A DNA stretch of 64,000 bases from an uncultured virus (IMG/VR IMGVR_UViG_3300006103_001171) (Duplodnaviria > Heunggongvirae > Uroviricota > Caudoviricetes): the IMG/VR virus record IMGVR_UViG_3300006103_001171; one strand, 5' to 3'. The number at the start of each line of letters is the position of its first letter. The stretch's first letter is position 1. Below the pieces are notes generated by a model. It had not been told where the DNA came from and did not search any database. It saw only the letters and a program-made list of their open reading frames with translations. The position numbers and the translations under genes are program-made. This document shows positions 34,478 through 63,268 of this stretch, one piece after another.

Positions 34478-35173
34478 ATGATAACACAAGATTTTAACGA
34501 ATACGCAAAGAAACACTTTGGCGTATCAGATACCCAATTACGTGATTGGGAAGTTTTACAAAGTAAAATTTATGGTGGTGCAACAGCATCATTAACCCCT
34601 TACGTTCTTGAGGAAAGAGAACTTAGGGTAACACAGATTGATATTTTTTCCAGAATGATGATGGACAGAATCCTCTGGTTAGCTGGCCCCGTAAATGACA
34701 GAATGTCAACAATCGTTCAAGCACAACTTATGTTCTTGGATAACTTGGAAGTAAAAGACATTATATTGCATGTAGACTCACCAGGTGGTTCGGTTAAGTC
34801 AGGTCTTTCAATTGTTGATGTTATGAATTACGTTTCATCTGAGATAGTAACAATTAACACTGGTATGGCCGCTAGTATGGGTAGTATCCTTTTAGGTGCT
34901 GGTACAAAGGGTAAACGTTATACATTACCATCCAGTCGTGTAATGCTTCACCAAGTGTCATCTGGAGCTGAGGGTACGTTAGCCGATATTAAAATATCTA
35001 TTGCTGAGGCTGAAAAATATAATAATAAGTTATTTGGGATGCTTGGCGAATATACCAACAAGACACCAGAACAAGTTATGAGTGATGCTAGTCGTGATTT
35101 TTGGATGGATAGCAATGAGTCAGTTGAATATGGGATAGTTGATGCGGTAATAACATCTAAAAAAAGAAAATAG
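34478..35173 (+). CDS. clpP: ATP-dependent Clp protease proteolytic subunit
   Basis: 'DIFSRMM.DRI', 'DSPGGSV', 'GMAASMGS' and 'MLHQ'. Confidence 0.95.
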   Translation: MITQDFNEYAKKHFGVSDTQLRDWEVLQSKIYGGATASLTPYVLEERELRVTQIDIFSRMMMDRILWLAGPVNDRMSTIVQAQLMFLDNLEVKDIILHVDSPGGSVKSGLSIVDVMNYVSSEIVTINTGMAASMGSILLGAGTKGKRYTLPSSRVMLHQVSSGAEGTLADIKISIAEAEKYNNKLFGMLGEYTNKTPEQVMSDASRDFWMDSNESVEYGIVDAVITSKKRK

Positions 35174-35321
35174 TTATTTAAATAAGGTTAGTAATAGTTA
35201 CTAACCTTATTTTAAAAAATCAACATAACTAAAATTTTCATAAAAACGTTCTGGTTTTTTTGCACTATAATTTGGATTTTACTTAAAAGTCTAATATTTA
35301 TTTATAAGTTCTTTAAAATAT

Positions 35322-35671
35322 GGGGATACAATGTATTGATTAGGTATAGTCGTACAGTGTAAGCATGTAGTGCTAGATGGAAGCACTTAAATCTCGCTAT
35401 TAAAACAAGAAAAGACAACGATTTAATCGTATCTGAAAATTTCCTTGATGAGGCTGTTTACAGCTTCGGTGGAGAGTTAGCTGTAGCCTAAAACAGCAAT
35501 AGTGGTAATCCACTTGATGATGGTAAATCCATTAAATAGTGTTAGAACACTGGTGAGACCAAATTCACCTTAAAAAGTAAGGAAAGATTCGCTGGGTTAT
35601 AAAACCTAGATAAACATGTAGAAAGCTCTAGAAGAATACTTAAGACACGGACTCATTCTCCGTTATCTCCA
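35322..35671 (+). ncRNA. ssrA: tmRNA
   Basis: Acceptor stem GGGGATA/TATCTCC-A, gcatgtag/acatgtag helix motifs, and an internal tag frame 35414..35491 (DNDLIVSENFLDEAVYSFGGELAVA*). Confidence 0.85.
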
Positions 35672-35793
35672 CTCTCATCAAGATTCCACCTAACTCACCT
35701 AGGGATTGGAACTAATAACCCCTCGCAAGTCGCTTTGTTGGGGGTTTAACTTATTAAAATAAAAAAGGGCCTTTAAAAGCCCTTTTAATTTTT

Positions 35794-35940
35794 TTAATTA
35801 CCTTGTTGTACTGTTGGAACTGTTACGTTTACTTGTGCTGTTGGTTGGTTAACAATAGTGGTTGTTGTAGTTGTTGTAGTTGCTACATCTTTTTTACCAC
35901 CTTTACATCCACATCCGAAGAGTTTTTGTTCTAATTTCAT
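35794..35940 (-). CDS. Small GCGCK-motif protein (48 aa), not in the ORF track
   Basis: MKLEQKLFGCGCKGGKKDVATTTTTTTIVNQPTAQVNVTVPTVQQGN*, with an A-rich leader and a hairpin terminator at about 35763..35790. Confidence 0.6.
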   Translation of the reverse strand: MKLEQKLFGCGCKGGKKDVATTTTTTTTIVNQPTAQVNVTVPTVQQGN

Positions 35941-36025
35941 AGTTCTTAATTTTTTAAATTTGTTATTTATCTATAAATAGATTTACTTTAAAAATAAATC
36001 GATAATATTTTAATAAATATACATA

Positions 36026-36235
36026 ATGTTTTATAAAAGGAAATACTCAGTAACAATACTTGATGAAAAATGGTCCCAAATGCAGGATTCATTAAAGCTC
36101 TTTGTAATACCTAGGATAGATGAAATGGTCTATATGGAGAATCATAAGAAGTACTTTAAGGTTATAAATGTGATTCATTATCTAAATAATAAACAAGGAA
36201 TTTTTATCATAGTTAAACCCTTTGAAAATAAATAA
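36026..36235 (+). CDS. Hypothetical protein
   Basis: 69-aa ORF. Confidence 0.55.
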   Translation: MFYKRKYSVTILDEKWSQMQDSLKLFVIPRIDEMVYMENHKKYFKVINVIHYLNNKQGIFIIVKPFENK

Positions 36236-36254
36236 AAAATATTTTTAAAAAAAC

Positions 36255-36285
36255 TTGACAAATTAAAAAACTTTTCGTATATTTG
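36255..36285 (+). promoter_or_regulatory. Conserved tRNA-array promoter, copy 1
   Basis: TTGACAaattaaaaaacttttcgTATATTTG, containing the Bacteroidota-type TAnnTTTG -7 box; near-identical copies precede all four tRNA arrays. Confidence 0.8.
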
Positions 36286-36330
36286 CATATAATTATTAAA
36301 GTAGTTCTTATACATAAAAATATTTCTAGA

Positions 36331-36502
36331 AAAATGGTTACGGCAACGTAAAAAAAAAATTCTACTATTGAAGGGGCTTGGCCACTCCCACGTCACCATT
36401 TATGGTGGATAAAAGCTGAAAAGTAAGTGGCACCTGTTATGATGGCAGTTTAAATCTAATCCTTGTAGTGGTAGCAAGCCAAAATAACACAAAAACCATT
36501 TT
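36331..36502 (+). ncRNA. Structured RNA of the stem-(C)GGCAA family
   Basis: Outer stem aaaatggtt/aaccatttt followed by acggcaa; inner ggcttg/caagcc and ccact/agtgg pairings. Confidence 0.5.
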
Positions 36503-36516
36503 GAGAAACTTATTAA

Positions 36517-36576
36517 AGAATCAGTTCAGCAAATTAAACAATTTTTTTATCTGAAACAAAAAAACAAAATGATTCT
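36517..36576 (+). ncRNA. Minimal stem-CAGCAA RNA
   Basis: agaatca/tgattct stem, gttCAGCAA, and an inner T-run/A-run hairpin. Confidence 0.5.
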
Positions 36577-36582
36577 GAAATT

Positions 36583-36656
36583 TACGTCATTGGTGTAATG
36601 AGCACGTGCCCCCACATGGGGGGGGTTTAGACCAGTATCAAATCTGGATGACGTAC
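36583..36656 (+). tRNA. Atypical tRNA-like element (CAT in loop)
   Basis: Acceptor tacgtca/tgacgta, C-rich/G-rich anticodon stem around acat, and a degenerate T arm. Confidence 0.4.
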
Positions 36657-36701
36657 TTGCGAGGTGGAGCAGTAGTAGCTCGCTAGGCCCGTAAAATACA
36701 T

Positions 36702-36773
36702 TGCGCTGTAGAGAAGTAGTATCTCGCAAGCCTCATAAGCTTGAAATCATTGGTGCAAATCCAATCGGCGCAT
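36702..36773 (+). tRNA. tRNA-Met (CAT), initiator-like
   Basis: caagc-CTCATAA-gcttg arm; acceptor tgcgctg/cggcgca. A truncated 5' half of a similar tRNA lies at 36658..36696. Confidence 0.75.
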
Positions 36774-36778
36774 CATAT

Positions 36779-36864
36779 CGTGGGATGATGTAACGGTAAC
36801 ATTTGTGGCTCATAACCACAGTAGGCTTATAACCCTTGTATCAGTTCGATTCTGGTTCCCGCAA
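36779..36864 (+). tRNA. tRNA-Met (CAT) with C1:A72 mismatch and long variable arm
   Basis: tgtgg-CTCATAA-ccaca; T loop GTTCGATT. Confidence 0.7.
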
Positions 36865-36871
36865 CAAAAAA

Positions 36872-36924
36872 AGAATGAATTCCGCAATTTAAATTTTTTA
36901 TTTGGAAAAAAACAAACTCATTCT
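36872..36924 (+). ncRNA. Minimal stem-CCGCAA RNA
   Basis: agaatga/tcattct stem (covarying with the 36517 copy), attCCGCAA, and an inner T-run/A-run hairpin. Confidence 0.5.
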
Positions 36925-37167
36925 GAAAAAATTAAAAGATTTATCGAAAGATAAGTCTTTTTTTATTTGTATTATCCTTAAGAATTTCGTATATTTGCAT
37001 TATGGATATTAATAAAATTAATGGTAATGAAATCATAGACTTTTTAAATAGTCTTGATATGGATTCAGATAAAGAAGCTGGTGAATTTATTGGTGTTACT
37101 GGTGGTGCAATACAATATGCATGTTTAAAATCTAAAAACAATAAATGTAAAAATTATATATTTAAAT

Positions 37168-37677
37168 ATGAAACAAAATAATATAAGACTCAATATTGTG
37201 GGTTCAGCTAGGCATGGGAAAGATACACTTGCTGAAATTCTTAACGAACACTTCGGACTTAAATTTATATCATCATCTCAAGCATGTGCCGATATATTCA
37301 TTTACGATGCGTTAAAAGACAAGTATGGTTATAAGACACCAGAAGAATGCTTTGACGATAGGGTTAATCACAGGTCAGAATGGTATCAAATGATATGTGA
37401 TTATAATAAAGATGACAAGGCTAAATTAGCGAAGGAGATTCTTAAGTATAATAATACATATGTTGGTATGAGAAACCACGATGAAATTGAAGAATGTCGT
37501 AAACAAGGCTTATTTGATTTAATTATCTGGGTGGATGCCAGTGAAAGACTTCCAAAAGAAGATTCAACATCTTTCAATATTACTAAGGCTGATGCTGATA
37601 TTATAGTTGAAAACAATCAAGATTTAAAGACATTTAAAAATAAAATTGATAAATTAGGTAAATTATTGTTTAAATAA
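37168..37677 (+). CDS. Deoxynucleoside monophosphate kinase-like P-loop protein
   Basis: 'GSARHGKDT' P-loop; 'ADADIIVENN'. Confidence 0.7.
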   Translation: MKQNNIRLNIVGSARHGKDTLAEILNEHFGLKFISSSQACADIFIYDALKDKYGYKTPEECFDDRVNHRSEWYQMICDYNKDDKAKLAKEILKYNNTYVGMRNHDEIEECRKQGLFDLIIWVDASERLPKEDSTSFNITKADADIIVENNQDLKTFKNKIDKLGKLLFK

Positions 37678-37761
37678 ACTTTCTAATTTGTTAACAATAA
37701 TATCGTATATTTGCATCAGAATAAACAAAAAGGGTCGTTAAAAAAAAAGTTTTAAAAAAAC

Positions 37762-37804
37762 TTGACAAATTAAAAAACTTTTCGTATATTTGCATATATT
37801 TATT
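37762..37804 (+). promoter_or_regulatory. tRNA-array promoter, copy 2 (host-type box plus TATTTAT box in tandem)
   Basis: TTGACA...TATATTTGcaTATATTTATT. Confidence 0.8.
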
Positions 37805-37827
37805 AATAACGAACAAAAATTATCACA

Positions 37828-37929
37828 ATGATAGCAAACATAAACAATATGATTAATTCGATAAATTGGAGACATAATAGTCGCTCAATTAATCAAGTCA
37901 TGCTATCTAGTGATGTTAATAAAATATAA
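37828..37929 (+). CDS. Putative attenuator leader peptide 1 (Ile/Asn/Met/Ser/Trp/Arg/His/Asp)
   Basis: MIANINNMINSINWRHNSRSINQVMLSSDVNKI*, between the promoter and a terminator upstream of the tRNA array. Confidence 0.75.
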   Translation: MIANINNMINSINWRHNSRSINQVMLSSDVNKI

Positions 37930-37950
37930 CAAATTAAATCACAAATAACG

Positions 37951-37988
37951 AAAAGCCTCTGACTCATACGAATCAGAGGTTTTTTTTT
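37951..37988 (+). terminator. Intrinsic terminator/attenuator of tRNA array 2
   Basis: gcctctga...tcagaggt followed by a T-run. Confidence 0.85.
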
Positions 37989-37992
37989 ACCC

Positions 37993-38166
37993 ATGTCAGA
38001 AGAAATACGATATAAGAAATTAGGTGTTGTAAAACAAAAAGACTTGGATGCTGATTTTGATTCGATATACGATAAGTATAAGAGTATTGCTTTAGAACTT
38101 GGTTTAACAGGTGATTTAAAGTTTGTAAAAGAAAAGGGTAAAGTAATAATTTACATAGCTATTTGA
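37993..38166 (+). CDS. Small hypothetical protein (57 aa) inside the attenuated transcript, not in the ORF track
   Basis: MSEEIRYKKLGVVKQKDLDADFDSIYDKYKSIALELGLTGDLKFVKEKGKVIIYIAI*. Confidence 0.55.
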   Translation: MSEEIRYKKLGVVKQKDLDADFDSIYDKYKSIALELGLTGDLKFVKEKGKVIIYIAI

Positions 38167-38182
38167 CATTTAGGAAAAACAC

Positions 38183-38283
38183 ACGTAAATGACCGAGTGG
38201 TCGAAGGTGGTAGGCTCCAACCCTACTGAGATATATAACATTTATGTTAGGTCTCCGCATAGGTTCAAATCCTATTTTACGTG
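38183..38283 (+). tRNA. tRNA-Trp (CCA) with long variable arm
   Basis: gtagg-CTCCAAC-cctac; T arm atagg-TTCAAAT-cctat; acceptor acgtaaa/tttacgt. Confidence 0.7.
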
Positions 38284-38293
38284 CAAAATATAT

Positions 38294-38460
38294 TGGTAGG
38301 TGATGAAATTAGGAATTATATTCCGATGGCAGACATGCCCAATTGTCTCTTGGGTGGTGATAACGAGATAGATAAACAATACAGGGTTGACCACTAGCTT
38401 GCAAGCGTTAATGTTGTTTATTGAATCGCACCGTGGATGGTTCGAATCCTCCTCTACCAG
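38294..38460 (+). tRNA. Expanded tRNA-Asp (GTC)-like RNA (about 167 nt)
   Basis: Acceptor tggtagg/tctacca, cccaa-TTGTCTC-ttggg arm, GGTTCGAATCC T loop, and large inserts. Confidence 0.5.
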
Positions 38461-38504
38461 CAATAGTTTACTTGGACAACGTTCTTAAAATCGGAGTCCG
38501 TCAT

Positions 38505-38587
38505 GGAGAGTGGCACCCAAGGTGGGTAACTAGACTTGAAATCTAGGCCAAGGTAAAAACTTGAGGTTTCGATTACTTCACCATCCG
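38505..38587 (+). tRNA. tRNA-Ser (TGA)
   Basis: ctaga-CTTGAAA-tctag; long variable arm. Confidence 0.7.
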
Positions 38588-38615
38588 CAATTTTGGTTGT
38601 TTTTTACTTTTTTTT

Positions 38616-38704
38616 GGAGAAATAAGGAGGGTAATGGTGGACCCCGTCCGTTTGCTAAACGGAAACCCATTAAGTTGGGCACGTTTCGATTACGTATTTC
38701 TCCG
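38616..38704 (+). tRNA. tRNA-Ser (GCT)
   Basis: tccgt-TTGCTAA-acgga; acceptor ggagaaa/tttctcc-G. Confidence 0.7.
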
Positions 38705-38706
38705 CT

Positions 38707-38794
38707 GGATATATTGGCAGAGTGGTTTAATGCAATTTGCGTGAAGCAAATGGTCCTTAAAGGGCCCACAGGTTCGAATCCTGTATATTATCTC
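38707..38794 (+). tRNA. tRNA-Ser-like (TGA), atypical loop
   Basis: atttg-CGTGAAG-caaat, long variable arm, GGTTCGAATCC. Confidence 0.5.
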
Positions 38795-38801
38795 TAAATA
38801 T

Positions 38802-38875
38802 GGGTTTCGAAGCTTTAAGGTGAAGCGCAAGTTTGTGGCACTTGAGAACTCGGTTCGATACCGTGCGTTACCCCA
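38802..38875 (+). tRNA. tRNA-His (GTG)
   Basis: caagt-TTGTGGC-acttg. Confidence 0.7.
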
Positions 38876-38907
38876 AAATTGTTTTAAGTAATTAACTGTT
38901 AAAAAAT

Positions 38908-38980
38908 GGGTAGTTAGTTCAACTGGTAGAGCACTGTTCTGATACGACAGCCGTTACAGATTCGACTTCTGTACTACCCA
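38908..38980 (+). tRNA. tRNA-Ile (GAT)
   Basis: ctgtt-CTGATAC-gacag; acceptor gggtagt/actaccc. Confidence 0.8.
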
Positions 38981-38985
38981 CAAAT

Positions 38986-39058
38986 TGGTCTTTAGCTCAA
39001 TTGGTAGAGCAAGATACTCATAATATCGAGGTAATGGGTTCGATTCCCGTAGGACCAA
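38986..39058 (+). tRNA. tRNA-Ile2/Met (CAT)
   Basis: gata-CTCATAA-tatc; canonical D and T arms. Confidence 0.8.
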
Positions 39059-39082
39059 CATAATATTCTTCCATGGTGAAAT

Positions 39083-39154
39083 GGCTTGGTAGCTCAAAGG
39101 TGGAGCATTCGTTTGTTAAACGACAGGTTGAGATATCGTAATTCTCCCAAGCCG
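39083..39154 (+). tRNA. tRNA-Asn (GTT)
   Basis: tcgt-TTGTTAA-acga; acceptor ggcttgg/ccaagcc. Confidence 0.75.
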
Positions 39155-39222
39155 CAAATTAACTTTTTTTGTTAATTATTTGACTTTTTGTTCGAACTGT
39201 GTATATTTATAATAAAGAATAT

Positions 39223-39969
39223 ATGAAAGAAAAAATATTAGAATTAAGGAAAAATGGGTTATCAATAAATGAAATAGTTGAAGAGTTAAAGTGTGCTAAA
39301 AGTACTGTTTCATACCATATAAATAAAAACGGTTTAGGTGGTATTAGAAATAGGTTCTTAAAAGGTGTTAGTGATGAAACGATAAATAAAATTAAAATTT
39401 TTAGATTAGAGTCTAAAACATATAATGAAATTTTAGAGTTAATTGACATAAGTGAGGATAAATTAAAAAAAATTTGTCGATTATTTGAGATAAATAATAG
39501 TACTGGTGGTTTTAAACTTAAAGATGTTGATAAAGATGAGGTTATAAAGTATTATTTATCTGTAAAATCAATACGAAAAACTGCTGATTATTTTAATATT
39601 AGTAGAGACACAGTTAAAAAATATATACCTGACAATCTTATCTTAATTAAAGATAAAATAACCAAATCACAATCAGTTATTAATTGGCGTAAAAGAACAA
39701 AAATTAAATTAATTGATTATAAAGGTGGTTGTTGTGAAAAGTGTGGTTATAATAAATCTACATCAGCATTACAATTTCATCATTTAAACCCTAAAGAAAA
39801 GGATTTTCAAATTGGTGGTTCAAGTTATTCATTTGAAAATCTAAAAAAAGAAGTTGATAAATGTATATTAGTATGTGCAAATTGTCATATCGAAATACAT
39901 GAAGAATTAAGGATTTGTAGCTCAGAGGCAGAGCATTCGTTTGTTAAACGACAGGTCGAGATATCGTAA
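39223..39969 (+). CDS. HNH homing endonuclease with N-terminal HTH domains
   Basis: 'YKGGCCEKCGY...LQFHH...KCILVCANCHIEIH'; the C-terminus runs into a tRNA remnant. Confidence 0.85.
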   Translation: MKEKILELRKNGLSINEIVEELKCAKSTVSYHINKNGLGGIRNRFLKGVSDETINKIKIFRLESKTYNEILELIDISEDKLKKICRLFEINNSTGGFKLKDVDKDEVIKYYLSVKSIRKTADYFNISRDTVKKYIPDNLILIKDKITKSQSVINWRKRTKIKLIDYKGGCCEKCGYNKSTSALQFHHLNPKEKDFQIGGSSYSFENLKKEVDKCILVCANCHIEIHEELRICSSEAEHSFVKRQVEIS

Positions 39970-39982
39970 TTCTCCATTAGCG
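39911..39982 (+). pseudogene. Disrupted second copy of tRNA-Asn
   Basis: Nearly identical to 39083..39154 from the D arm onward, but the 5' acceptor strand does not pair with the 3' cattagc. Confidence 0.75.
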
Positions 39983-39987
39983 CACAT

Positions 39988-40057
39988 TGCGTAGGTTATC
40001 GGAATACAACCATCTCTCATAAGGAAGGTCAAGGCGGTTCAGCTCCGCTCTACGCAA
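39988..40057 (+). tRNA. tRNA-Met (CAT)-like, reduced D arm
   Basis: Acceptor tgcgtag/ctacgca, CTCATAA loop, gcgg-TTCAGCT-ccgc. Confidence 0.5.
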
Positions 40058-40060
40058 CAT

Positions 40061-40133
40061 GGTTCCATAGTTCAATGGATTAGAACAGATGATTACGAAT
40101 CATCCGATAAGCGTTCGAGTCGCTTTGGGACTA
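40061..40133 (+). tRNA. tRNA-Arg (ACG)
   Basis: gatga-TTACGAA-tcatc. Confidence 0.8.
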
Positions 40134-40249
40134 CAGTATAGTAAATGTGATATAAGAAGAACTAATATCAGGTGGAGTTAGTGTCCGTACCACGTTAAAA
40201 AATTGTGATGATTATACAAGGTGTTGTCGAGTACACAACTATACTATTT

Positions 40250-40276
40250 GGTCTTGTCGTTCAATGGATTAGGACT
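40250..40276 (+). pseudogene. 5' half of a disrupted tRNA-Arg
   Basis: ggtcttg-tc-gttcaatggattaggac; ggtcttg pairs with cgagacc at 40962..40968. Confidence 0.75.
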
Positions 40277-40283
40277 ACTATAA

Positions 40284-40356
40284 GCTTCTATGGTGTAACT
40301 GGATAACACTTTTGCCTTCTAAGCAAACTTTCTGAGTTCGAATCTCGGTAGGAGCA
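40284..40356 (+). tRNA. tRNA-Arg (TCT)
   Basis: tttgc-CTTCTAA-gcaaa; acceptor gcttcta/taggagc. Confidence 0.8.
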
Positions 40357-40409
40357 CTAGTTAAATGGATATTTTTTTTCTTTTTCCATTTAACGATATA
40401 TTTATTAGT

Positions 40410-40946
40410 ATGGAAAAAGAATTTTTAATTGATTGTATTAATAAAGGGTTAAGTCTAAAAAAAATAAGTAAATTATGTGGTAAAGCACCTAGTACAATAA
40501 CATATTGGTTAAATAAATTTAATTTAAAAACTAATAATTTGTCGTTTAAAGTTAAAGGAAAAATTGATTATAATAATCAAAGATGTTGCCCAAAATGTAA
40601 AATTACTAAAGAATTAAATGAATTTTATAATAGACGTGATAAAATAGGTAGTTCAGTTTATTGTAAAACTTGTACCAATAAACAAGTTTTAGATAGACAA
40701 CGGGAACTTAAGCAACAAGCTGTTGATTATAAAGGTGGGTATTGTATAATATGTGGTTATAATAAATGTAATGCGGCGTTAGAATTTCATCATTTAGAAC
40801 CAGATAAAAAAGATTTTAGCATTAGTCAATTAAAAAAATATGCCTTTACTGAAAATATAAAAAAAGAATTAGATAAATGTATTTTGTTATGTTCTAATTG
40901 TCATAGAGAATTTCATTCTGGTATTTTAATTCTAAGCAAACTATAG
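40410..40946 (+). CDS. HNH homing endonuclease
   Basis: 'YKGGYCIICGY...LEFHH...KCILLCSNCHREFH'; start taken at MEKEFL after the ATATTTATT box. Confidence 0.85.
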   Translation: MEKEFLIDCINKGLSLKKISKLCGKAPSTITYWLNKFNLKTNNLSFKVKGKIDYNNQRCCPKCKITKELNEFYNRRDKIGSSVYCKTCTNKQVLDRQRELKQQAVDYKGGYCIICGYNKCNAALEFHHLEPDKKDFSISQLKKYAFTENIKKELDKCILLCSNCHREFHSGILILSKL

Positions 40947-40969
40947 CAGTTCGAATCTGCTCGAGACCA
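40930..40969 (+). pseudogene. 3' half of a disrupted tRNA-Arg (TCT)
   Basis: TTCTAAgcaaac...gcag-TTCGAAT-ctgc-t-cgagacc-A. Confidence 0.75.
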
Positions 40970-40979
40970 CATTTTTTAT

Positions 40980-41067
40980 GGAGAGCAAACCCTGACGGTG
41001 AGGGGGTCCGCCTGCTAAGCGTGAAGTTCGGCGAAAGCTGGATTCGGTTCAACTCCGATGTTCTCCG
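40980..41067 (+). tRNA. tRNA-Ser (GCT)
   Basis: cgc-CTGCTAA-gcg, long variable arm, acceptor ggagagc/gttctcc-G. Confidence 0.7.
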
Positions 41068-41088
41068 CATTTTTCATTTGTTGTTTTT

Positions 41089-41112
41089 AAGGGTACTTCG
41101 GTACCCTTTTTT
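41089..41112 (+). terminator. Terminator closing tRNA array 2
   Basis: aagggtac-TTCG-gtaccctt followed by a T-run. Confidence 0.85.
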
Positions 41113-41135
41113 ATTTTATGGGATATTTATAAAAT

Positions 41136-41780
41136 ATGCAAAAAGCTAAATTTATACTTCACGAACAAATGAATCGTATTCATGAATTATCTGGAAACAA
41201 TATGGTTTCAGGTAAACATCTAGTTGTTGTTGATATTCAACCAGAATACGAACAATGGTGCAGTCACATTCTCCCAGAATTTGTTGATTTTTTAAATGAA
41301 AACTATGAAACCCTTTCCAGATTAACTTTCCTATATAATGGTGATAGTCTTGGTATGGTTTCTGAGGGTAACTATCAAAATTGGTGGTTCGATAATGGCT
41401 TAAGTGAAGATGTAATTTACAGTTCAAGGTTTTATGATAAAGGCTACGCATTTTTTAGGTATTGTATTGATGAGGGTATAGATGATGAAACTATTGTTAA
41501 CCTAATAAAGTACATGCTTGAAAAGGATGTATTTGATACTAGAGAATTAGATGAGGAATTCTGGGATGAGTATGTCGAAAGATATGGTGCTGCGCATATC
41601 AGAGAATTATTAGAATTTGCTGGGGACTCAATGAATATACCAGACCTTATGGATGAATTAAAAAATTATACAAACATAATATTATGTGGTGGTGGGATTG
41701 ATGAGTGTCTTAAAGAGGTTGAAATAGCTCTTCAAGTACTTAACAAACACTATACTGTTTTAACAAAATATACATACTAA
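41136..41780 (+). CDS. Isochorismatase/cysteine-hydrolase-like protein
   Basis: 'LVVVDIQ' and 'ILCGGGIDECL' motifs. Confidence 0.45.
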   Translation: MQKAKFILHEQMNRIHELSGNNMVSGKHLVVVDIQPEYEQWCSHILPEFVDFLNENYETLSRLTFLYNGDSLGMVSEGNYQNWWFDNGLSEDVIYSSRFYDKGYAFFRYCIDEGIDDETIVNLIKYMLEKDVFDTRELDEEFWDEYVERYGAAHIRELLEFAGDSMNIPDLMDELKNYTNIILCGGGIDECLKEVEIALQVLNKHYTVLTKYTY

Positions 41781-42442
41781 TGAAAATTTTAAACATATTT
41801 AAAAAACTCATATTAGAAAATGAAATACCTCTTGATGAGGAGTATCCATTAAGTTGGAGTATCGAAGAATTTAAGAAGTTAAGAAATTTTAGTCAAAGGG
41901 TTAAGTATTGTGAAACGCATCTAAAGCGTATATCATCAGGTTCTGGTAGAATTGCTTATAAGATTGATGAAGAAAAGGTTCTTAAATTGGCTAAAAATGA
42001 AAAGGGTGTTTCACAGAATCAAGCTGAAATTCAACAATCTGATGATTATTACTTACAACCAATACTAGCAAATGTATTTGAATACGATGAGAATGGGTTA
42101 TGGGTTGAAATGGAACTAGCGAGAAAATTAACTGCTGGTGATTTTAAAAGACTTGTTGGTTTTAATTTTAAAGACTATGCAGAATTATTACATAATCACG
42201 GTGTTGTAGCCAATCTTGGTCGTGGTTTTAAATACTCAATAGATAAAGAATTATCAGATGCTATGTGGGATAATGATTTTATATCTAGTATACTAGATTA
42301 TATTGGTAGTTGGGGTGTTCCATCGGGTGATTTAGAACGTCTTAATACATATGGTATAGTTAAAAGAGATGGTAAGGATACTATTGTAATTGTTGATTAT
42401 GGCTTAACTGAAGAAGTTCTTAATAAACATTATAAAAGATAA
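41780..42442 (+). CDS. Protein kinase-like protein
   Basis: 'SSGSGRIAY', 'VLKLAK', 'GDL....YG' and 'VDYG'. Confidence 0.6.
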   Translation: MKILNIFKKLILENEIPLDEEYPLSWSIEEFKKLRNFSQRVKYCETHLKRISSGSGRIAYKIDEEKVLKLAKNEKGVSQNQAEIQQSDDYYLQPILANVFEYDENGLWVEMELARKLTAGDFKRLVGFNFKDYAELLHNHGVVANLGRGFKYSIDKELSDAMWDNDFISSILDYIGSWGVPSGDLERLNTYGIVKRDGKDTIVIVDYGLTEEVLNKHYKR

Positions 42443-42491
42443 ATTTGTTTAATTAAAATTTATGTCATATATTTGCTTTTTAAAAACAATT

Positions 42492-42809
42492 ATGGACATA
42501 CATAAGAAAATTAAAGACTTTGAAGATAGTTTAAAAATCTTTGCACACAAATTGGCTGAGCAAGGTAAAGAAACTGAGGTCGCAGCTAAAATTCTTGAGA
42601 AACACATAAAGGGTATTGATGTTACACCTGAAGAAGATGTGTTATTAAAACAAAACATTTACGATACCTTAAAAATAGCTGGAATTGGTATACCATTTAT
42701 GCTGATACCAGGTGCTAGTGTCATATTACCAGCGTTAATTATACTAGCGAAAAAAAACAATATTAATTTATTACCGTCAAAATTTATTGAAGATGAAAAA
42801 AGTAATTAA
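42492..42809 (+). CDS. Hypothetical protein with a hydrophobic segment
   Basis: ORF from MDIHKK, after a TATATTTG box. Confidence 0.55.
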   Translation: MDIHKKIKDFEDSLKIFAHKLAEQGKETEVAAKILEKHIKGIDVTPEEDVLLKQNIYDTLKIAGIGIPFMLIPGASVILPALIILAKKNNINLLPSKFIEDEKSN

Positions 42810-43725
42810 GCAAATCTTAAGAGAAAACACTGAGAAGAATATTTTAGGTATTACCGTAACAAGACCTAATCAAGAGTTGATTATTATGAGAGGAATCTCT
42901 GGTAGTGGTAAAAGCACAATGGCTAAATCATTAGTTAAGGGTGGTGTCATACATTCAACCGATGACTTAATAGAAGCAACTGGTGATTATAATGGATTCT
43001 TTGCTAAAATGATAGAAGCAAATAACTTTGCTGATTTAAGTCGTATGCACTCTAATAACCTCAAGAATGCGATGAAATCTATGGATAATGGTATAAGTCC
43101 AGTCATAATAGATAACACGAATTTAAGACCTAGTGAGGCTAAACCATACGTAATGTATGCGTTAGAGATAGGCTATGCTGATGATAATATTAAAATTGTT
43201 GATGTTGGTACTGGTGGGTTAAGTGCTGAAGCTTTAGCGGCTAGAAATTCTCATGGTGTTCCATTAGAGAATATTCAACGAATGATTAATACTTATAATG
43301 GTGTCGGCCCTTTAACTCTCAATAAAATTATTGAGGCTAGTGACATGTATAAATCATCTAATGTTTTATATTCTTGTGTTTTATTAGATGATAATTCACG
43401 TAATTTATTATTATTAACATTTGCCGATGTTATACCGAATGGATGGAAAACGATAGCACATCATATGACAATTGTTTTTGGTAAGGGTATTGACGATAAA
43501 AATGAGTTGGGTAAAGAAGTTGTATTAACAGTTACAAACGTTGGATGGAATGATAAAGCAATAGCTGTTTTGGTTGATGGTTATCCATCTAAAAATGCTA
43601 ATCCACATATTACATTAGCTATTAATCCAGATGGTGGTAAACCTAAGGATTCTAATGAAATTACAGATTGGAAAAAAATTAGACCATTTAAAATAAATGG
43701 TGTTGTGACAGAAATTAAAAAATAA
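42793..43725 (+). CDS. Polynucleotide kinase (P-loop) fused to a 2H cyclic phosphodiesterase
   Basis: 'RGISGSGKST' and 'IIDNTN'; C-terminal 2H motifs 'HMTI' and 'HITLA'. Confidence 0.8.
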   Translation: MKKVIKQILRENTEKNILGITVTRPNQELIIMRGISGSGKSTMAKSLVKGGVIHSTDDLIEATGDYNGFFAKMIEANNFADLSRMHSNNLKNAMKSMDNGISPVIIDNTNLRPSEAKPYVMYALEIGYADDNIKIVDVGTGGLSAEALAARNSHGVPLENIQRMINTYNGVGPLTLNKIIEASDMYKSSNVLYSCVLLDDNSRNLLLLTFADVIPNGWKTIAHHMTIVFGKGIDDKNELGKEVVLTVTNVGWNDKAIAVLVDGYPSKNANPHITLAINPDGGKPKDSNEITDWKKIRPFKINGVVTEIKK

Positions 43726-56961: not shown

Positions 56962-57042
56962 ATGAGAAATTTAAACAACATATTGGTCCTTGTGTTATGT
57001 GTGCTAGTGTTAACTAGTTCTACTGGGTATTCCATGTTTTAA
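56962..57042 (+). CDS. Putative attenuator leader peptide 2 (Leu/Cys/Val)
   Basis: MRNLNNILVLVLCVLVLTSSTGYSMF*; codons 8-17 are ttg gtc ctt gtg tta tgt gtg cta gtg tta. Confidence 0.75.
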   Translation: MRNLNNILVLVLCVLVLTSSTGYSMF

Positions 57043-57066
57043 ATTTAACATTTAAAAATAATTGAG

Positions 57067-57097
57067 AAGCTCAGTCCGAAAGAACTGAGCTTTTTTT
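57067..57097 (+). terminator. Intrinsic terminator/attenuator of tRNA array 3
   Basis: aagctcagt-ccgaaaga-actgagctt followed by a T-run, ending just before tRNA-Cys. Confidence 0.85.
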
Positions 57098-57099
57098 AT

Positions 57100-57171
57100 G
57101 TGCCTTTGTCCGAGCGGTTTAGGTAGAGTTCTGCAAAAGCTCTTACGGCGGTTCAAATCCGTCAAGGCACT
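57100..57171 (+). tRNA. tRNA-Cys (GCA)
   Basis: gagtt-CTGCAAA-agctc; acceptor gtgcctt/aaggcac-T. Confidence 0.85.
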
Positions 57172-58531: not shown

Positions 58532-58614
58532 AAGATGATTTCAGCAAATAAATAGGATAAAAATTTACACTTAAAATGCAAATCGAAAGGGTTCAAATCC
58601 CTAAAAATCATCTT
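58532..58614 (+). ncRNA. Stem-CAGCAA RNA containing tRNA-like arms
   Basis: aagatgattt/aaatcatctt stem, CAGCAA, CTTAAAA loop, and T arm aggg-TTCAAAT-ccct. Confidence 0.55.
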
Positions 58615-58687
58615 GTTTTTTATTAACATATTAAATAATAGTAGAGTTTATATTTACATTTTCATAAACTCTACTATATTTATTAAT

Positions 58688-62653: not shown

Positions 62654-62752
62654 ATGAAAAAGGCATATACATATTATCAACCGAAAACGCAAGGGGGCAA
62701 AACTCCTAATAGGCTGGGTGTATCTTTTTCTGATGAAGATGATTGTAAGTAA
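62654..62752 (+). CDS. Putative attenuator leader peptide 3 (Tyr/Thr/Gln/Pro/Gly/Lys)
   Basis: MKKAYTYYQPKTQGGKTPNRLGVSFSDEDDCK*. Confidence 0.75.
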   Translation: MKKAYTYYQPKTQGGKTPNRLGVSFSDEDDCK

Positions 62753-62772
62753 ACAATTAGTAAGATATAAGT

Positions 62773-62809
62773 AAACCCCAGTCTGATGAAAATTCAAACT
62801 GGGGTTTTT
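62773..62809 (+). terminator. Intrinsic terminator/attenuator of tRNA array 4
   Basis: aaaccccagt...actggggttttt, ending just before tRNA-Pro. Confidence 0.85.
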
Positions 62810-62815
62810 AATTTT

Positions 62816-62890
62816 CGGGAAGTTCCACAGATGGCTATATGGGCTTGTTTTGGAGACAAGTGTTCGCTCGTTCGAATCGAGTTTTCCCGA
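62816..62890 (+). tRNA. tRNA-Pro (TGG)
   Basis: cttgt-TTTGGAG-acaag; acceptor cgggaag/tttcccg-A. Confidence 0.75.
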
Positions 62891-63106: not shown

Positions 63107-63191
63107 CAAAGTAAAGAAGTAATTGGGTTAGCTGTTTTCCGTGGCTGGTCTGATGAAGGTTAAGTCCTTATGATTAAATAACGGATAAATT

Positions 63192-63263
63192 GGGATAGCC
63201 AGCAGGGTTCTGAAGACAGTCTGTAAAACTGAACTTCGTGTGTTTCGAGTACACCCTATCCCA
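63192..63263 (+). tRNA. tRNA-Tyr (GTA), atypical short form
   Basis: cagt-CTGTAAA-actg; acceptor gggatag/ctatccc-A. Confidence 0.55.
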
Positions 63264-63268
63264 CATTT

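Follow-up and report, generated by a model that had tools for sequence, protein, structure and literature searches.

Introduction

What controls the transfer RNA (tRNA) genes carried by phages, and why these genes lie in separate blocks, is largely unknown. The question is raised in a concrete form by a 64,000-nucleotide (nt) stretch of DNA from an uncultured virus (IMG/VR record IMGVR_UViG_3300006103_001171; hereafter the window, whose numbering is used for all coordinates, strand +), in which a 33-codon open reading frame (ORF), here called Leader 1, is placed between a promoter and a strong intrinsic terminator, with an array of tRNA genes beyond. A first-pass annotation had read this ORF as an attenuator whose codons match the tRNAs of the array. 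Our analysis supports this interpretation with six types of array-matched leaders and with a segment of the ORF that tracks the terminator sequence. We propose that Leader 1 is probably a ribosome-mediated (leader-peptide) transcription attenuator that gates the phage tRNA array and exerts feedback on tRNA supply.

The window is AT-rich and carries 20–23 tRNA genes. We consider it phage DNA because its relatives are IMG/VR viral contigs and because it contains, besides the tRNA genes, HNH homing-endonuclease-like ORFs, a dNMP-kinase-like gene and a transfer-messenger RNA (tmRNA)-like gene. A megablast search of 36500–41500 against deposited phage genomes returned no match. Four near-identical copies of one promoter are found in the window (at 36255, 37762, about 56895 and about 62590), with a TAnnTTTG motif which we take to be the Bacteroidota -7 element. 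Downstream of three of the copies comes the same series of parts, namely a small ORF, a strong intrinsic terminator and a tRNA array; we refer to these as units 1, 2 and 3.

Leader 1 and the tRNA array that follows it

The regulatory part of unit 1 comprises the following features:

37762–37792, +: promoter (TTGACA, 17-nt spacer, TATATT overlapping the TAnnTTTG motif)
37828–37929, +: leader ORF 1, 33 codons plus TAA, conserved in five other units
37831–37893, +: putative sensor segment (codons 2–22), 20/21 codons readable by array tRNAs
37896–37964, +: candidate composite antiterminator, weak (37896–37900 with 37960–37964; 37902–37904 with 37954–37956)
37950–37988, +: intrinsic terminator, with a hairpin of about -17 kcal/mol and nine consecutive Ts after it

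The tRNA array of the same unit spans 38183–41068 and contains these genes:

38183–38284, +: tRNA-Trp (CCA anticodon), with a long extra arm (Rfam tRNA model, 53.4 bits)
38505–38705, +: two low-scoring Ser-type tRNA-like genes (TGA, GCT), called by ARAGORN with -ps only and weak in Rfam
38707–39155, +: tRNAs Ser(TGA), His(GTG), Ile(GAT), CAT (Met or Ile2) and Asn(GTT) (ARAGORN, Rfam)
40061–40357, +: tRNAs Arg(ACG) and Arg(TCT) (ARAGORN)
40980–41068, +: tRNA Ser(GCT), the last gene of the array (ARAGORN)

The anticodons claimed in the first-pass annotation are thus found by ARAGORN for Ser(TGA), His(GTG), Ile(GAT), CAT, Asn(GTT), Arg(ACG), Arg(TCT) and Ser(GCT). The Trp tRNA, missed by ARAGORN at default settings, is established by the Rfam match (38183–38283, with CCA in the anticodon loop) and by its alignment with the Trp(CCA) genes called by ARAGORN at the equivalent position in five relatives.

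Recounting the codons of Leader 1 gives the same figure as originally claimed: with Met1 included, 21 of the first 22 codons belong to the array's amino-acid set, Ala being the exception. More specifically, every codon from 2 to 22 except codon 3 specifies an array amino acid (20 of 21), and 20 of 21 are readable by array anticodons under strict wobble rules, assuming that the CAT tRNA reads ATA. The families sampled by codons 2–22 are Ile, Asn, Ser (both boxes), Trp, Arg (both boxes), His and Met/Ile2, that is seven amino acids and nine anticodon classes, mostly used once to a few times each; the label of an ‘eight-way’ sensor was therefore an undercount. By drawing on both Ser boxes and both Arg boxes, Leader 1 mirrors the array, which has two isoacceptor types each for Ser and Arg. 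Two of the codons employed are rare: in the window's long ORFs, TCG accounts for 5% of the Ser codons and CGC for 1% of the Arg codons. The peptide is indeed free of Tyr, Pro, Thr, Gly and Cys.

AT-rich DNA tends to contain many Ile and Asn codons, and the match could in principle result from chance combined with AT bias. The binomial probability of the match is, however, 1.3e-9 against the proteome composition of the 49 long ORFs of the window and still 1.1e-7 when the comparison is with random codons drawn at the leader's own base composition, so that AT bias alone does not account for the Ile and Asn richness. Among the 252 window ORFs that start with ATG and have 22–60 codons, only Leader 1 reaches 20/21 (mean 7.45). 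Furthermore, the AT-rich families Lys, Phe, Tyr and Leu are absent from codons 2–22, and the pattern is repeated in five further leader types. Based on the own-composition probability and the comparison with the 252 ORFs, we reject the chance reading, to which we attach a practically negligible probability.

The two sister units of the window are organized in the same way:

56962–57097, +: unit 2, with leader ORF at 56962–57042 and terminator at 57064–57097; tRNA-Cys at 57100 and three Leu tRNAs
62654–62809, +: unit 3, with leader ORF at 62654–62752 and terminator at 62773–62809
62713–62720, +: candidate antiterminator strand of unit 3, pairing with 62777–62784
62816 onward, +: array of unit 3, tRNA-Pro at 62816, then Pro, Gln, Tyr, Thr and Gly

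Leader 3 devotes 13 of 21 codons to Gly, Pro, Gln, Thr and Tyr, a score unequalled among the 252 small ORFs. The leaders of the three units fit their own arrays and not one another's.

Leaders and arrays in related phages

Relatives were sought by pattern and protein searches of viral contigs, and four related contigs (G002–G005) were scanned over all or nearly all of their length. In total, 19 units with six leader types were obtained, the window included. Because units of one type are homologues, the 19 units are not independent, and the six types and the 11 terminator families are the fairer counts. In each of the 18 tabulated units, the leader shows an enrichment in amino acids of its own array (whole-peptide p < 0.05). 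In the first 21 codons, the numbers of codons matching the leader's own array are, for example:

Type 1, G004: 21/21
Type 1, G005: 20/21
Type 2, L061: 12/21
Type 2, G004: 15/21
Type 3, G002: 20/21
Type 3, G004: 19/21
Type 4, G003: 19/21
Type 5, G002: 12/21
Type 6, G003: 11/21

Counts are lowered where arrays are cut by contig ends (L001, L058, L059, L061, L076 and L078).

The table of all leaders against all arrays is block-diagonal. Type-1 leaders score 0–1/21 against type-2 arrays, and type-3 leaders score 0–2 against type-1 arrays. With one representative per type, the true pairing of leaders and arrays ranks best of the 720 permutations. Differences between leaders of the same type follow the arrays as well. 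The type-3 leader of G004 has an added Glu codon and is followed by an array with three Glu tRNAs; the type-2 leader of the same contig has added Asp, Phe and Ala codons, and its array includes tRNAs for these three amino acids. In G002, L059 and G004, Lys tRNAs match the Lys codons of type-3 leaders.

Among the 13 arrays with at least three tRNAs whose 5' end lies on the contig, 12 carry a unit of this kind; in 3 of these 12, ORFs of 0.9–2 kilobases (kb) are inserted between the terminator and the first tRNA. Searches for further type-1 relatives with the 57-codon ORF that follows the terminator, used by itself and as an alignment of five sequences, retrieved only the five known loci. A degenerate promoter pattern applied to metagenome contigs hit two loci, of which one matched the window exactly over the inspected stretch and the other was already known.

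Selection on the leader reading frame

We compared homologous leaders to see what is kept as they diverge. The reading frame of the ORF is conserved in six type-1 units, which vary by synonymous changes, in-frame codon insertions or deletions, and radical exchanges that remain within the amino-acid set of the array. At the variable columns between 2 and 23, 27 of the 31 distinct residues of type 1 and 19 of the 22 of type 3 belong to the array set; at later columns, the corresponding numbers are 14 of 27 and 6 of 17. The enrichment ends near codon 21: of the later codons, 0/10 match in Leader 3 of the window and 5/11, near expectation, in Leader 1. The block of Trp, Arg, His and Ser codons, on whose conservation the initial reading had placed weight, is retained in 5 of 5 other type-1 leaders. 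Since residues stay within the array set despite radical exchanges, and since this constraint fades past codon 21, selection appears to act on which tRNAs are needed and not on peptide chemistry. Judged by this sequence comparison, the leader ORF is selected for its codon set.

These patterns bear on two other explanations. According to the first, the ORFs encode functional micropeptides and are served by a promoter and terminator of their own, constitutive leakage past the terminator supplies the arrays, and the composition match carries no regulatory meaning. The conservation of the ORFs as reading frames agrees with this, as do the hydrophobic character of type-2 leaders, which could be membrane peptides, and the pairing of the Leader 1 antiterminator, which is not above chance. 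Yet purifying selection on residue chemistry, the signature expected of a micropeptide, was not found, and the explanation does not account for six unrelated peptides that each use the amino acids of their own array, for radical substitutions that stay within the array set, for an enrichment that ends near codon 21 or for a distal ORF segment that tracks the terminator sequence (see below). A terminator 2–6 nt before a tRNA, with no promoter in between, would also be an odd arrangement for constitutive expression. We hold the micropeptide explanation to be quite improbable.

According to the second, an untranslated RNA element, T-box-like or another riboswitch, senses tRNA directly and the ORF is incidental. 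The regulated genes are tRNAs and a terminator follows the leader, as such an element would have it. On the other hand, in-frame indels and synonymous changes point to selection on a reading frame, the signal resides in codons, and no RNA motif is conserved across the types. In addition, a cmscan search of 35000–43000 with 4227 Rfam families, including the T-box model, gave no match to the T-box or to a leader family at E up to 1. The T-box reading was rejected on this result, and we regard direct sensing of tRNA by the leader RNA as very improbable. The curated leader families for His, Thr, Leu, Trp, Leu/Phe and Bacteroid-trp likewise had no match in 35000–43000. The one exception, ylbH, is a chance-level match on the opposite strand (20.7 bits compared to a gathering score of 50).

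The terminator and its candidate antiterminator

An attenuator needs a terminator that stands in the way of transcription and an alternative pairing that undoes it. Strong intrinsic terminators are present in 19 of 19 units, and in all of them 20–32 nt separate the leader stop codon from the foot of the terminator stem, although the sequences are unrelated; in unit 1, the terminator begins 20 nt past the stop codon. The leader region of unit 1 folds far more strongly than its shuffles (z -5.7).

Transcription of the arrays appears to have to pass these terminators. From terminator end to first tRNA there are 2 nt in unit 2 and 6 nt in unit 3; in unit 1, the first gene after the terminator, a 57-codon ORF, starts 4 nt past the T run. 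A scan of the + strand for the TAnnTTTG consensus found no such motif in 37793–41670, the scan being for that motif only and other promoter types being possible. With gaps of 2, 6 and 4 nt and no such motif, the order of parts appears to leave neither room nor motif for another promoter, nor another route to the array.

To look for the alternative pairing, we folded each transcript cut just short of the 3' arm of its terminator. In 19 of 19 units, the best upstream partner of the terminator's 5' arm lies within codons 18–31 of the ORF, directly past the enriched segment, and the pairing is lost in folding when a ribosome is placed at codon 22 or later. The energies of the duplexes between arm and upstream region were compared to 500 dinucleotide shuffles each. 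For the 11 distinct terminator sequences, Fisher's combined p for complementarity between ORF and arm is 2.5e-8. A swap control, in which arms were paired with the upstream regions of other units, gave a mean of -11.5 kcal/mol for cognate pairs vs -7.8 kcal/mol for swapped pairs; the cognate upstream region ranks first for 6 of 11 arms, and only 1 of 100,000 random assignments matches the diagonal sum. Family-wide, the leader ORF is thus complementary to the arm of its terminator, a result read from sequence and folding.

In G004, the type-1 leader, a diverged homologue of Leader 1, precedes another terminator and forms with it a perfect 10-base pair (bp) helix at codons 22–26, where Leader 1 has its weak pairing (-16.6 kcal/mol, 0/500 shuffles), and the type-3 leader of this contig forms a 9-bp helix (-16.5 kcal/mol, 0/500 shuffles). 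Types 2c, 2d, 4 and 6 each have 6–7 bp with their own arms. Across units, the ORF segment therefore changes along with the terminator sequence. For Leader 1, the coordinates put forward in the first-pass annotation (37896–37904 with 37954–37964) are correct, and RNAalifold applied to the five close type-1 sequences recovers this helix as the base of a composite stem whose inner hairpin spans the leader stop codon.

A codon match shows that decoding is sensed, but not how, and leader translation might instead act through Rho access, RNase processing, precursor stability or a test message feeding a tmRNA-like system, with no switch between terminator and antiterminator. In favor of such routes, a tmRNA-like gene lies 2 kb upstream and equilibrium folds always favor the terminator. 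Against them stand the strong intrinsic terminators in 19/19 units and the complementary segment, which varies with the terminator arm at a fixed place of the ORF: terminators and a covarying segment fit what a terminator/antiterminator switch needs, and the other routes require neither. We consider these routes unlikely.

Proposed mechanism

From the layout of unit 1 and its relatives, we infer translation of the leader, stalling, a switch and the direction of regulation as follows. Transcription would begin at the promoter at 37762–37792 and the 33-codon ORF would be translated. Fast decoding of codons 2–22 would bring the ribosome onto the distal third of the ORF and its stop codon, on or inside the antiterminator (37896–37964). 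A ribosome covering the antiterminator and the stop-codon hairpin would allow the terminator (37950–37988) to form, and transcription would end. If decoding of any sampled codon is slow, the ribosome would lag and the antiterminator would capture the 5' arm of the terminator, so that RNA polymerase would continue into the 57-codon ORF and the tRNA genes. RNase P would presumably then release the first tRNA from the leader. Since the products of the array are the tRNAs that are sensed, the loop would be one of negative feedback.

Several observations weigh against the attenuator proposal and set its limits, beginning with Leader 1 itself. Its codon 3 (Ala) has no tRNA in the array. Its antiterminator, which the initial reading had already singled out as the weakest pairing, is indeed weak: the arm duplex has 5+3 bp and -7.9 kcal/mol and is equalled by 93/500 and 72/500 shuffles, its own upstream region ranks only 7th of 11 in the swap control, and the RNAalifold consensus reaches only -4.8 kcal/mol with two compensatory pairs, located in the inner hairpin. 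The type-5 antiterminator is likewise not above shuffles (156/500). An anti-antiterminator (region 1:2 pairing) appears in the fold without ribosome of the window and L001 and is absent in L071 and L076; not being conserved among type-1 units, it was dropped. Leader 2 taken alone is not significant (7/21, p 0.076 under its own composition, equalled by 11 of 252 ORFs), and its five Val codons have no Val tRNA detected in the window. The four Lys codons of Leader 3 are unmatched within the window, which ends 477 nt past the last tRNA. The pair of Met tRNAs in the window has no such leader, and a Met/Cys array in G004 has no such unit in the 420 nt inspected upstream. Finally, the homology of units of the same type reduces the weight of the 19 units as repeated observations.

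Other features of the locus

The remaining features of unit 1 are listed below:

37993–38166, +: conserved 57-codon ORF, function not assigned, starting 4 nt past the T run
39223–39969, +: homing-endonuclease-like ORF (helix-turn-helix and HNH) within the array; its 3' end enters a partial second Asn(GTT) copy
40410–40946, +: second HNH-like ORF; its 3' end overlaps a duplicated 3' half of the Arg(TCT) tRNA
41089–41115, +: terminator-like hairpin closing the transcription unit

The 57-codon ORF is present in all five close type-1 units, with 27 invariant positions in five sequences; it belongs to no PHROG family, and Pfam gives it no match above the curated cut-off. Lying past the type-1 terminator and ahead of the first tRNA, it would share the regulation of the array.

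Within the array, at 39223–39974 and 40410–40970, both HNH ORFs end within a partial duplicate of the preceding tRNA; the partial Asn(GTT) copy that ends the first one lies at 39911–39974 and scores 30.7 bits in Rfam. In G003 and G004, HNH-like ORFs similar to those of the window separate the terminator from the array. The Trp(CCA) tRNA has an extra arm of about 29 nt, unusual for a tRNA-Trp. Its homologue in G004 is long-armed too, and the homologues in G005, L001, L076 and L078 (four aligned) are without a long extra arm. As to the CAT tRNA, its likeness to an Ile(TAT) tRNA of a relative says little about an Ile2 identity, the Ile(TAT) call being a 95-nt hit of low quality and the sequence identities being uninformative. 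ARAGORN calls CTA-anticodon tRNAs, of the amber-suppressor type, in G002 (28578 and 76576), G003 (35257) and G004 (93270), and none in the window.

Five stretches on the + strand between called tRNAs (38290–38465, 39975–40060, 40135–40283, 58533–58620 and 63108–63268) end in T-arm/acceptor-like sequence, and neither ARAGORN nor Rfam calls a tRNA in any of them. By eye, their anticodon-like loops include one CAT, one TAC (Val-like) and one GTA. To judge from their sequences, the uncalled stretches between tRNAs may be degenerate or insert-bearing tRNAs, and the Val-like stretch could account for the Val codons of Leader 2.

Upstream of unit 1, the tmRNA-like gene occupies 35322–35674 (+). It is matched by Rfam RF00023 with 46.1 bits (gathering score 47, E 5e-16), is not called by ARAGORN and lies 2 kb upstream of Leader 1; the proximity of a phage ribosome-rescue RNA to leaders proposed to sense stalling may merit attention. 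The fourth promoter copy (36255–36865, +) is followed only by a 5-codon ORF and, further downstream, by two CAT-anticodon tRNAs. Between them, 36330–36700 specifies about 400 nt of unannotated RNA that is G+C-richer, apparently structured and without an Rfam match; comparable regions lie upstream of Met tRNAs in G004 and G005.

Discussion

Taken beyond the single locus, our analysis leads us to favor, with some reserve, a general proposal for large phages of the Bacteroidota type: their tRNA genes would be kept in blocks, each behind its own multivalent attenuator, with a leader codon set equal to the tRNA set of the block. Each block would then be a sensor and homeostat of decoding speed, switched on when the matching host tRNAs are in short supply, have been depleted by infection or have been cleaved by anticodon nucleases, and turned off again by its own products. 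Attenuation would thus regulate tRNA abundance and not only amino-acid supply.

If this is true, a phage gauges the decoding capacity of the cell per codon family and adds only what is lacking. This would represent a new use of a textbook mechanism and provide a testable link of phage tRNAs to host tRNA depletion and to tRNA-targeting defences. The match also offers a handle that requires only the genome, since the codon set of a leader predicts the tRNAs that follow and helps to annotate odd or degenerate phage tRNAs. Furthermore, the leaders would be compact multi-input translation sensors that could be reused as reporters.

Leader-peptide attenuation has long been known for amino-acid operons. 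The excerpts retrieved from the full-text collection searched contain no account of leader-peptide or attenuator control of tRNA genes, and a passage of one article, PMC3082878, is not relevant to such control. Attenuators are expected to govern genes of biosynthesis, transport or tRNA charging; the locus departs from this expectation because its regulated genes are tRNA genes.

How the proposed system relates to known ones can be seen by taking these in turn. The Bacteroid-trp leader motif, an Rfam family of Bacteroidota, regulates trp genes and responds to a single amino acid. Its existence suggests that leader-peptide attenuation occurs in the phylum indicated by the promoter type, while its sequence is unrelated to that of the leaders described here and gives no match.

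T-boxes bind uncharged tRNA without translation, through Stem I and T-box motifs, and sense one tRNA. Common to both systems would be a decision between terminator and antiterminator upstream of genes of the tRNA-charging system, set by tRNA status. The phage leaders differ from T-boxes in that they have no T-box match and in that their frame-preserving change points to translation.

A close mechanistic model is found in the enterobacterial attenuators, some of which are multivalent: thr has Thr and Ile codons, and ilvGMEDA/ilvBN have Ile, Leu and Val codons; trp, his, leu and pheA are further examples. As in these operons, a short leader rich in regulatory codons and an intrinsic terminator precede the first regulated gene, a candidate antiterminator overlaps the 5' arm of the terminator so that ribosome position would decide, and more than one amino acid would be sensed. 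Unlike in these operons, the cargo consists of tRNA genes, the 57-codon ORF and homing-endonuclease ORFs instead of biosynthetic enzymes; seven amino acids and nine anticodon classes are sampled a few times each instead of in single-codon runs; and the modules are owned by a phage, with several per genome, each fitted to its own block.

A last comparison is with pheM, the leader of pheST, an attenuator of a synthetase that senses one amino acid, and with similar attenuators acting on genes of the translation apparatus. There as here, a leader-peptide attenuator would tie the expression of part of the decoding apparatus to how much charged tRNA is available. In the phage arrays, unlike in pheST, the tRNAs themselves are the product, so that the loop would close on tRNA abundance.

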